25,473 nt of DNA from a virus (IMGVR_UViG_3300044267_001940:1-25473), one strand, 5' to 3'; numbered from the stretch's first letter, positions 1-2,047 are shown. The notes: generated by a model from the sequence alone, not told the origin. Numbers and translations: made by a program.

Positions 1-2047
1 TTTACCAACAGCAGATGAACCGTTTAAACGAAGCGAAAAAAAAGCAGAACAATATTGGGAAAAACAAGAGTACCCAAAAGAGCTAAATAGAATTAAAAGC
101 AGGTTTGACTGGGAAGAATATCCATCAGATTTTAAAGAAAAATGGTACGATTATATTGACAATGAATTTAATAGACGAGAAAAAGGATTTTGGTTTTATA
201 ATGATGGTGTTGCTACTTACATTACTGGCACTCATTACATGTACTTGCAGTGGTCAAAGATTGACGTTGGAGCACCAGATTATAGAGAAGCAAATAGATT
301 CTTCTTTATATTTTGGGAAGCATGTAAAGCAGACAACAGATGTTACGGAATGTGCTACCTTAAAAACAGACGATCTGGATTCTCTTTTATGTCAAGCGCA
401 GAACTTGTTAACCAAGCTACAATATCTTCCGATTCTAGATACGGTATACTCTCCAAGTCTGGTGCCGATGCCAAAAAAATGTTCACAGATAAAGTTGTCC
501 CAATATCCGTCAACTACCCGTTCTTCTTTAAACCTATTCAAGACGGGATGGATAGGCCGAAAACTGAGTTGGCATATAGAGTTCCAGCCTCGAAGCTTAC
601 TCGTAGAAAGCTCCAAGAAAATATTAAAGAATTAGAACTAGAAGGATTAGATACAACTATTGACTGGAAAAACACAGGTGATAACTCATACGATGGTGAA
701 AAGCTAAAAATATTAGCTCATGATGAAAGTGGTAAATGGGAAAGACCTGACAATATATTAAACAACTGGAGGGTTACAAAAACTACATTACGTCTTGGTT
801 CTAGAATCGTAGGTAAATGTATGATGGGCTCAACTTCAAATGCTTTAGATAAAGGTGGAGACAACTTCAAAAAATTATACTACGCTTCTGATGCTACTAA
901 AAGAAATAGAAACGGACAAACATCTTCTGGGCTCTATAGCTTGTTCATTCCTATGGAATGGAACTATGAAGGATTCATCGATACTTATGGACTACCTGTA
1001 TTCGTTAGAAACAAAACTGCAGTTAAAGGAGTCGATGGCTATGAAATTACAACAGGAGTTATTGAGCATTGGGAAAACGAAGTTGAAGGACTTAAGTCAG
1101 ATCAAGACAGCTTAAATGAATATTATAGACAGTTTCCAAGAACAGAGCAACATGCTTTTAGAGATGAGACTAAAGACAGCTTGTTTAACTTAGTAAAAAT
1201 ATACGAGCAAATTGACTTTAATGATGAAATGAATAGTCAAGCTAGTATATCTTTAGGTAATTTTCAATGGAAAAATGGGATTAAAGATACTTTAGTTAGC
1301 TTTGTGCCAAATAACAACGGTAGATTTAGATTAACTTGGGTTCCTAGTGTAGGAATACAAAACAACGTAATATTAAAAAATGGAATTAAATATCCAGGTA
1401 ACGAACATATTGGAGCTTTCGGCTGTGATTCTTACGACATTAGCGGTACTGTTGATGGTCGCGGCTCTAAAGGAGCATTACATGGATTAACTAAGTTTTC
1501 TATGGAAGACGCACCACCTAACCATTTCTTTTTAGAATATATATCAAGACCTGAAACTGCTGAAATATTTTTTGAAGATGTACTTATGGCTTGTATTTTT
1601 TATGGTATGCCAATTTTAGTAGAAAATAATAAACCAAGATTACTATACTATTTTAAAAGAAGAGGTTATAGAGGATTTAGTATGAACAGGCCAGATAAAA
1701 TTTGGAATAAGTTATCAACTACAGAAAGAGAAATAGGTGGAATACCTAATTCAAGTGAAGATATAAAACAAGCTCACGCAGCCGCTATTGAGTCTTATAT
1801 AAACGAGAATGTAGGTCAACTAGAAAATTCTATGGGTAGTATGTATTTTCAGAAAACATTATTAGATTGGTCTAAGTTTAATATAAATAATAGAACTAAA
1901 TTTGATGCTACAATAAGTTCTGGTTTAGCTATAATGGCTTGTAATAAAAATAAGTATAGACCTATACCTAAAAGAGTTTCAACAAAAATAGATTTAGGAA
2001 TAAAAAGATATAACAACGAAGGAGTTACCTCGAAATTAATACAATAA
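1..2047 (+). CDS. terL: Terminase large subunit, 5'-truncated (frame is open from base 2, upstream of the ATG at 239)
   Basis: Frame reads LPTADEPFKRSEKKAEQYWEK...ITGTHYMYLQW with no stop from base 2. Walker A-like KNRRSGFS, Walker B LAHDESGKW, motif III-like GSTSN, RNase H-type nuclease acidic motifs FGCDSYD and KFDATISSGLA. Lies directly upstream of the portal gene. Confidence 0.93.
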   Translation, partial: LPTADEPFKRSEKKAEQYWEKQEYPKELNRIKSRFDWEEYPSDFKEKWYDYIDNEFNRREKGFWFYNDGVATYITGTHYMYLQWSKIDVGAPDYREANRFFFIFWEACKADNRCYGMCYLKNRRSGFSFMSSAELVNQATISSDSRYGILSKSGADAKKMFTDKVVPISVNYPFFFKPIQDGMDRPKTELAYRVPASKLTRRKLQENIKELELEGLDTTIDWKNTGDNSYDGEKLKILAHDESGKWERPDNILNNWRVTKTTLRLGSRIVGKCMMGSTSNALDKGGDNFKKLYYASDATKRNRNGQTSSGLYSLFIPMEWNYEGFIDTYGLPVFVRNKTAVKGVDGYEITTGVIEHWENEVEGLKSDQDSLNEYYRQFPRTEQHAFRDETKDSLFNLVKIYEQIDFNDEMNSQASISLGNFQWKNGIKDTLVSFVPNNNGRFRLTWVPSVGIQNNVILKNGIKYPGNEHIGAFGCDSYDISGTVDGRGSKGALHGLTKFSMEDAPPNHFFLEYISRPETAEIFFEDVLMACIFYGMPILVENNKPRLLYYFKRRGYRGFSMNRPDKIWNKLSTTEREIGGIPNSSEDIKQAHAAAIESYINENVGQLENSMGSMYFQKTLLDWSKFNINNRTKFDATISSGLAIMACNKNKYRPIPKRVSTKIDLGIKRYNNEGVTSKLIQ
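162..635 (+). CDS. Putative overprinted membrane/secreted protein in the +1 frame of terL (spanin-like candidate)
   Basis: 182 stop-free codons (87-632) in a frame that is normally stop-rich here. ATGs at 162 and 201/204 precede the hydrophobic segment FIMMVLLLTLLALITCTCSGQ. The terL codons over this span are atypically GC-rich. Confidence 0.55.
   Translation: MNLIDEKKDFGFIMMVLLLTLLALITCTCSGQRLTLEHQIIEKQIDSSLYFGKHVKQTTDVTECATLKTDDLDSLLCQAQNLLTKLQYLPILDTVYSPSLVPMPKKCSQIKLSQYPSTTRSSLNLFKTGWIGRKLSWHIEFQPRSLLVESSKKILKN
855..1115 (+). CDS. Possible second overprinted ORF in the +1 frame of terL
   Basis: 86 codons with GTG start and internal ATGs; LLGSIAC segment followed by a helical/coiled-coil-like C-terminus. 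Confidence 0.25.
   Translation: METTSKNYTTLLMLLKEIETDKHLLGSIACSFLWNGTMKDSSILMDYLYSLETKLQLKESMAMKLQQELLSIGKTKLKDLSQIKTA

Follow-up and report, generated by a model that had tools for sequence, protein, structure and literature searches.

A predicted lipoprotein gene nested in the +1 frame of the terminase large subunit gene of a marine tailed phage

The embedded o-spanin genes of phages lambda (Rz1) and T7 (gene 18.7) each lie wholly within the +1 frame of a late gene and encode lipoprotein-type proteins, in which an N-terminal Cys anchor is followed by a flexible, variable region, according to the available text of PMC6139136. The nested gene described here shares this arrangement and, by prediction, this protein layout. 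The same text also covers u-spanins of the T1 gp11 type, which resemble the nested protein in having an N-terminal lipoprotein signal and a similar size, and u-spanins have been annotated in flavobacterial phages (PMC8776804, available part). Nesting within a terminase gene has been described as well, in that T7 genes 19.2 and 19.3 (NC_001604.1), which encode hypothetical proteins of 85 and 57 aa, occupy the +1 frame of the gene for the terminase large subunit. Finally, overprinted genes that arose de novo commonly have a restricted distribution and a disorder-promoting composition, and in phiX174, where gene E lies within gene D, T-rich third positions of the host gene give rise to a Leu-rich membrane segment (PMC8227390, as far as its available text goes). 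These properties are also found in the nested gene.

We analyzed a DNA stretch of 25,473 nucleotides (the window), a 25.5-kb fragment of a tailed phage that carries the gene for the terminase large subunit (terL), a portal gene, a gene for a 377-aa protein, a gene for a major virion protein and other structural genes. Its source is a marine phage. The 5' end of terL is missing from the window; the TerL proteins of relatives have 736-748 aa. Among GenBank phages whose host is named, the nearest ones are phages of Flavobacterium, Cellulophaga, Maribacter and Tenacibaculum, which share at most 47% TerL identity with the window phage; we infer that the latter has a Bacteroidota host. The TerL of an uncultured spring phage is 65% identical to that of the window. 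The phage group is abundant, with an estimated 16,000 or so stored viral stretches matching its TerL patterns. In members of this group (L173-L241, MW202828.1), the packaging genes are preceded by genes resembling GroEL/GroES and by many short ORFs rich in Lys. Phage contigs of this group were also found binned with very different bacteria and archaea (L243-L315), which suggests mis-binning, and the bin labels are therefore not to be taken as hosts.

Table 1. Positions of terL, the nested gene and their parts in the window
Feature	Position	Strand	Remarks
terL, terminase large subunit gene	2..2047	+	PHROG 6681, E 1.4e-158; host frame of the overlap
Open +1 frame of terL, stop to stop	87..635	+	182 sense codons
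Nested gene, likely coding part	162..635	+	ATG162, 157 aa; TTG156 as alternative start; predicted lipoprotein precursor
Hydrophobic h-region, residues 16-26	207..239	+	T selected at TerL third positions
Lipobox-like L-I-T-C27 (Cys 240-242), alternative Cys29 (246-248)	231..248	+	Predicted lipidation site
Polar tail, likely disordered, no C-terminal membrane helix	249..632	+	Codon bias; low AlphaFold2 confidence
Walker-A-like motif of TerL	359-388	+	Inside the nested gene; label provisional

The open +1 frame and its state in relatives

The initial annotation of this DNA described an envelope-targeted protein overprinted on the ATPase region of TerL, in a long +1 frame for which terL turns away from TTA, ATA and GTA before purines, and these observations are borne out. 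Sense codons run from 87 to 632, between a TAA at 84-86 and the closing stop at 633-635. Recoding terL synonymously across this frame, at the codon usage of the window, produced a mean of 8.7 stops, and 0/20,000 trials were stop-free (approximate P 5e-7). In seven other genes of the window, the +1 frame ran open for at most 46-75 codons. Among the Leu, Ile and Val codons that stand before a purine, NTA accounted for 0/14 in the overlap versus 34/57 downstream, and this avoidance was restricted to codons before purines. The hydrophobic segment, the Cys residues and the D-S-L and D-T-V motifs that had been pointed out were all found in the translation. The ORF spans the Walker-A-like motif, a stretch in which TerL codons 121-128 are invariant in 49/49 open loci, and ends before 707-739, which we take to be the Walker-B-like motif. 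Both Walker labels are provisional, because a search of the PDB found no sequence match for TerL.

The +1 stops of relatives were placed on the TerL codon numbering of the window, in three samples that were all chosen by TerL alone; 80 loci retrieved with the +1 protein itself formed a biased set and were excluded from every count. In the first sample of 80 loci, codons 55-189 were stop-free in 58, none had one stop, and 22 had 2-7 stops. The +2 and three reverse frames contained stops in all 58 open loci, leaving the +1 frame alone stop-free, and an antisense or +2 ORF was thus rejected as the cause of the open frame. In an independent sample from genome bins, with 65 usable loci of 73, 35 loci were open, a single stop was present in 2, and 28 had 3-9. 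The merged samples comprised 219 loci covering codons 46-195, after omission of one 47% outlier, and were reduced to 149 by dereplication (<92% nucleotide identity). Among these 149, 88 were open, 4 had one stop and 57 had two to nine; stop counts among the relatives are bimodal. The frame thus stays open in most close relatives, and the open loci keep the hydrophobic N-terminus, as would be expected of the envelope-targeted overprinted protein that was proposed. All six GenBank phage records examined (6/6) have a closed frame, and none annotates such a gene. Judged from sequence data, the nested +1 frame very likely encodes a translated protein.

At least 14 switches between open and closed states were counted on a 135-row tree of the C-terminal part of TerL. 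A single clade of open loci was rejected, with p-AU of 0.0004 for the whole protein and 0.025 for the overlap region, in a 34-row subset that was picked after the 135-row tree had been seen. Our interpretation is that the gene was gained once and lost repeatedly, and that some recombination took place (L275-L277). In L275, L276 and L277, the N-terminal region of TerL and the nested gene cluster with lineage A and the C-terminal part clusters with distant closed phages, a pattern likely to reflect recombination of the overlap module. A test on supported independent open/closed pairs gave 3.4-4.3 in the same direction as the leader counts given below and at most 0.2 in the opposite one, which is not significant because the six pairs available are too few.

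Two proteins of 151-178 aa (P0119 and P0124) resemble +1 translations of more distantly related terL genes and have G-S-C but no hydrophobic segment; a search with P0119 gave lineage A loci only among its matches and did not place this distant form. A second +1 run within terL of the window, at 855-1115, has 86 codons, a GTG start and a short hydrophobic stretch that ends in I-A-C. It is open in 4/80 lineage A loci, 0/53 closed loci and 2/4 loci of lineage B (see below). The run is probably due to chance.

Start, signal region and tail of the predicted product

Starts cluster at TerL codons 49-61, and no one position is conserved. In lineage A, ATG, GTG or TTG was found between the last stop and codon 62 in 83/83 open loci, as compared to 39/57 closed loci, and where a stop occurred at codons 49-56, the frame restarted within four codons in 24/24 open versus 15/35 closed loci. 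From this placement of starts in relatives we take ATG162 as the likely start in the window. The initial annotation had offered ATG162 and ATG201. The former stands as one of several starts used in this interval, and the latter was not supported, as Met is present there in only 1/49 open relatives. No fixed slippery run was seen at codons 55-69. A conserved internal promoter was not supported; a Bacteroidota-type -7 word was not more frequent in open loci (24/83) than in closed loci (14/57). Contigs of relatives from RNA runs shared at most 0.11 of words and were uninformative on frame or start.

Three features of a lipoprotein signal are present, namely a short charged n-region, a hydrophobic h-region and a Cys within approximately 35 residues. 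The hydrophobic core comprises about 11 residues, often with Lys before it. It is Leu-rich because the third positions of TerL codons, which are the second positions of the +1 frame, are T-rich there. At four-fold sites of codons 70-79, the T fraction was 0.89 in open versus 0.50 in closed loci, and 0.79 versus 0.47 in a second sample. Similarly, Leu at h-region positions 75 and 77 was found in 48/49 open loci, as compared to 9/20 and 11/21 closed loci.

Cys80 is no evidence on its own, because Met-Tyr of TerL forces it in nearly all loci; its neighbours are free. In counts not corrected for kinship, a small residue preceded Cys80 or Cys82 in 80/83 open versus 30/57 closed loci. Where the first box was lost, the second was present in 18/21 open and 10/37 closed loci, and where the second was lost, the first was present in 15/18 and 15/42, respectively. 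Held-out loci gave 11/13 open versus 15/27 closed with a small residue before Cys. The consensus lipobox is [LVI][ASTVI][GAS]C, with G, A or S at -1 (PMC6139136, available text). The box of the window has Thr at this position, where TerL allows only Thr or Ile; it lies outside the consensus, yet Thr is selected over Ile.

In the 13 loci of lineage B (5 from the merged set and 8 later ones, after dereplication), the signal lies 14 codons upstream, and its last residues are (I/T)-G-(S/L)-C, with the Cys at codon 66. A hydrophobic stretch has been gained at codons 52-63 (KD 2.45 vs -0.3) and lost at 69-79, and TerL residues 57-67 are unlike those of other lineages. Gly is present at -2 and, in 11/13 loci, Ser at -1, the latter through TTC, the rarer codon, which was used in 52/241 cases elsewhere and in 2/11 closed loci with the same W-F-M in TerL. 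The Cys is retained also in loci whose TerL carries Arg in place of Cys. Lineage B is a single clade that falls within lineage A in the tree of the overlap region; 11/13 of its loci are fully open, and two stop at codon 165 or 170. The existence of two separate signal placements that both end in Cys favours a lipoprotein, and the precursor is probably lipid-modified at Cys27 or Cys29.

The 3' end of the tail varies among relatives, from TerL codon 190 to 265. Over codons 121-189, the T fraction was 0.32 in open versus 0.49 in closed loci and the hydropathy was KD -0.57 versus +0.16; over codons 218-252, the T bias (0.22 vs 0.51) was confined to loci whose ORF reaches that far. The third-position bias reverses from h-region to tail and stops at the end of each ORF. 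A scan for synonymous-site conservation, which had been suggested as a check, was positive in the signal region only, where four-fold identity was 0.58 in open versus 0.43 in closed loci. In the tail, variation was higher rather than lower, with a synonymous identity of 0.39 open versus 0.46 closed and no residue-level conservation. The Cys residues of the tail, previously listed as a feature, are either imposed by TerL or not enriched over closed loci. Pro makes up 4.5% of the tail versus 1.9% of closed shadows, with no proline run, and a basic tail was not supported as a selected trait (net charge +7.6 in open loci versus +6.8 in closed shadows). A C-terminal membrane helix, sought as a 17-residue window above KD 1.6, was found in only 1/88 open loci. 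AlphaFold2, run with 84 sequences, gave a mean pLDDT of 47.7 and a pTM of 0.19 and was confident only on the N-terminal helix. In some loci (L391-L393, L395, L225, L235, L401 and L410) the leader is intact and the frame is interrupted by a single stop at TerL codon 165-170; these early stops suggest that a tail of approximately 85-100 residues is enough.

Gene context, proposed function and rival readings

The nested protein had no family match in Pfam (best E 0.08), PHROGs or NCBIfam, and the best ESM Atlas score was 0.84, short of the 0.9 taken as a lead. Among the 15 matches inspected from each of two sets (22 and 154), there was no homolog outside terL; by inspection, these were +1 translations of terL or terL frameshift chimeras. 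A literature search restricted to papers available without subscription found no report of this nested gene.

With the use of our own pattern for free lipoprotein genes, and with 13 rows near the locus edge and two closed rows nearly identical, such a gene was found within 2.5 kb of the lysin gene in 6/19 closed versus 1/21 open loci (p 0.04, kinship ignored). The script-detected cases alone, five of them closed, gave p 0.085; in the sixth closed case, G002, the lipoprotein and lysin genes lie at opposite ends of a complete linear record. The lone open case (L023/L176) has lost both boxes and contains a u-spanin-shaped gene, and genes of this shape occur in some relatives that have no working nested gene. 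Among near-complete genomes, a tally that omits G051 (71% complete), any free lipoprotein gene (at least 60 mature residues) was present in 1/7 open versus 6/8 closed genomes (p 0.04), and a gene judged to be of lysis type in 0/7 versus 4/8 (p 0.08). In 13/19 closed loci there is no free lipoprotein gene near the lysin gene, so a lost nested gene does not always have such a substitute.

Three u-spanin-shaped genes (L176:6036-6482, L198:1794-2285 and L465:4073-4492) are unannotated, encode 139-163 aa of no named family, and have a lipobox and a C-terminal hydrophobic helix. A free lipoprotein family in two closed phages (L323:11104-11541 and L381:10-453) has a middle part rich in Tyr and Trp and a tail rich in Pro, Thr, Ser and Asn; in G002, a gene of this type precedes a TM-coiled-coil gene.

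In the close relative G056, genes for a holin-like protein, an amidase and a TM-coiled-coil protein are present, and a free lipoprotein gene is absent from that region. In close relatives, the gene for a protein with an N-terminal TM segment and an acidic coiled coil directly follows the amidase gene, which is the place of an i-spanin gene, and lies 4-17 kb upstream of terL; in others it is located downstream of the tail genes. This gene was found in open and closed genomes alike, often beside genes for thioredoxin-like or other exported proteins and not the lysin gene. At L318:11861-13784 and in many relatives, genes for an exported protein of 340-410 aa, a TM-coiled-coil protein and an exported thioredoxin-like protein adjoin a large tail-region gene.

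We propose that selection keeps the +1 frame from 162 to 635 open within terL, and that its product, a 157-residue precursor, would be exported, lipid-modified at Cys27 (or Cys29) and retained as a membrane-anchored lipoprotein with a polar tail. In E. coli, Asp at +2 affects the outer-membrane sorting of lipoproteins. There is no Asp at this position of the nested protein, and the mature lipoprotein may be sorted to the outer membrane. There its task, late in infection, would be to help disrupt the outer membrane in the manner of an o-spanin. As a partner, the small protein with an N-terminal TM segment and an acidic coiled coil, whose gene comes directly after that of the amidase in close relatives, is a candidate. 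The whole chain, from a selected nested gene through an exported lipoprotein to an o-spanin-like late role, is in our view plausible, if short of probable. A lysis role is tentatively put first among the possible functions, because gene context gives the sole functional lead. More speculatively, the lysis lipoprotein could have been born de novo over the catalytic core of the packaging ATPase, at a distance from the partner gene, replacing free lipoprotein or u-spanin genes; it would later have been lost repeatedly and swapped between TerL backbones by recombination, with its signal rebuilt 14 codons upstream via changes of TerL residues.

The initial annotation instead envisaged signal peptidase I (SPI) cleavage before Gln, together with O-glycosylation of the exported protein. 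Such a leader, or one left uncleaved as an inner-membrane anchor, would yield either a protein of the periplasm or a type II membrane protein, for instance an i-spanin or lysis regulator, and i-spanins are comparable in size to the nested protein. Thr at -1, not being a consensus lipobox residue, is in keeping with this, and the small residues at 79-84 suit SPI, with a compatible site before Gly84 in 72/96 and before position 85 in 53/96 loci of lineage A. Under the Q-rule, Gln directly follows the SPI site in Bacteroidota substrates (PMC5837995, available part), and Gln85, which the window itself has, is enriched in open loci (27/83 vs 7/57 closed). However, the remaining open loci have Pro (25/83), Val (15), Leu (9) or Ala (7) at this position, and the Pro in particular argues against cleavage there; the glycosylation sequon is likewise enriched (22/83 vs 5/57 closed) but absent from 61/83 open loci, and thus not conserved. 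Further points against SPI or an anchor are that the two Cys boxes compensate for one another, that the moved signal of lineage B again ends in G-S-C and keeps its Cys despite an Arg in TerL, that the core is short and often preceded by Lys, and that the tail is selected against the hydrophobic residues that a coiled coil needs. The structural model has a single short, low-confidence helix, not the N-terminal TM segment and coiled coils of i-spanin topology. Taken together, the data favour a Cys-anchored lipoprotein over SPI cleavage at Gln with glycosylation, and we consider an SPI-cleaved or inner-membrane-anchored product improbable. It is far less credible that there is no separate protein, with the frame reached solely by frameshifting from terL or open as the by-product of a DNA or RNA signal. 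The variable start position and the raised G+C across part of the overlap would fit such an origin, but the restart of the frame just after upstream stops, the flip of third-position bias that halts with each ORF, the avoidance of NTA only before purines and the results for slippery runs and the -7 word all speak against it.

The lipoprotein could also work without a spanin partner, as an exclusion or receptor-masking factor, for which the phage lipoproteins Cor and T5 Llp are models, or as a tuner of lysis timing. All the evidence for a lipoprotein fits this equally well; a fast-varying tail with a variable end and the many open/closed changes on the tree would be expected of an accessory, host-dependent gene, and the occurrence of the candidate i-spanin does not follow that of the nested gene. 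Nevertheless, free lipoproteins next to lysins, some of them u-spanin-shaped, are more common in loci with a closed or degenerate nested gene, and a tail without conserved residues is hard to square with binding to one receptor. We regard an exclusion or timing role as unlikely and keep the o-spanin-like role as the preferred reading.

Comparison with described nested genes and spanins

The locus offers a natural experiment on the birth of a gene, in which open, closed, lengthened and signal-shifted states can be compared. It indicates that an essential ATPase gene can host a second protein if selection acts on a short signal and on bulk polarity alone. Reduced synonymous variation, which is the usual test, would miss most of such a nested gene. 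If the lysis role is true, missing spanins should be looked for within terminase genes and other non-lysis genes, and if the lysis lipoprotein did arise de novo, it would represent a fourth spanin gene architecture and account for some apparently spanin-less phages.

In contrast to Rz1 and gene 18.7, which are embedded in the gene of their partner i-spanin (PMC6139136, available text), the host gene here encodes the terminase ATPase, and the mature part is longer, approximately 130 aa and up to approximately 185, with no sequence match between them. Relative to the o-spanin families covered in that text, the nested protein has no proline run, selected Cys or conserved interaction region. Its gene is nested in terL rather than embedded in, overlapping or beside an i-spanin gene. 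The nested gene resembles an embedded o-spanin in layout and differs from one in gene position and in the conserved interaction region. Unlike the u-spanins, the nested protein has no C-terminal membrane helix (1/88).

T7 genes 19.2 and 19.3 lie in the gene of an unrelated TerL, and by inspection their products have no lipoprotein-type leader; unlike them, the ORF described here covers the Walker-A-like motif, and selection on it is seen across many diverged lineages. Unlike phiX174 gene E, the nested gene belongs to a dsDNA tailed phage, and its predicted product has a cleavable Cys-ending leader and a long polar tail and is no cytoplasmic-membrane inhibitor. Genes nested in terL and nested lipoproteins were each already known, and their combination is unreported in the literature that we searched. 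As in overprinted genes generally, the frame is open beyond chance in diverged relatives, the codon choice of the host gene is shaped by the second protein, and the gene is confined to part of the terL family, with no free-standing homolog among the matches inspected.
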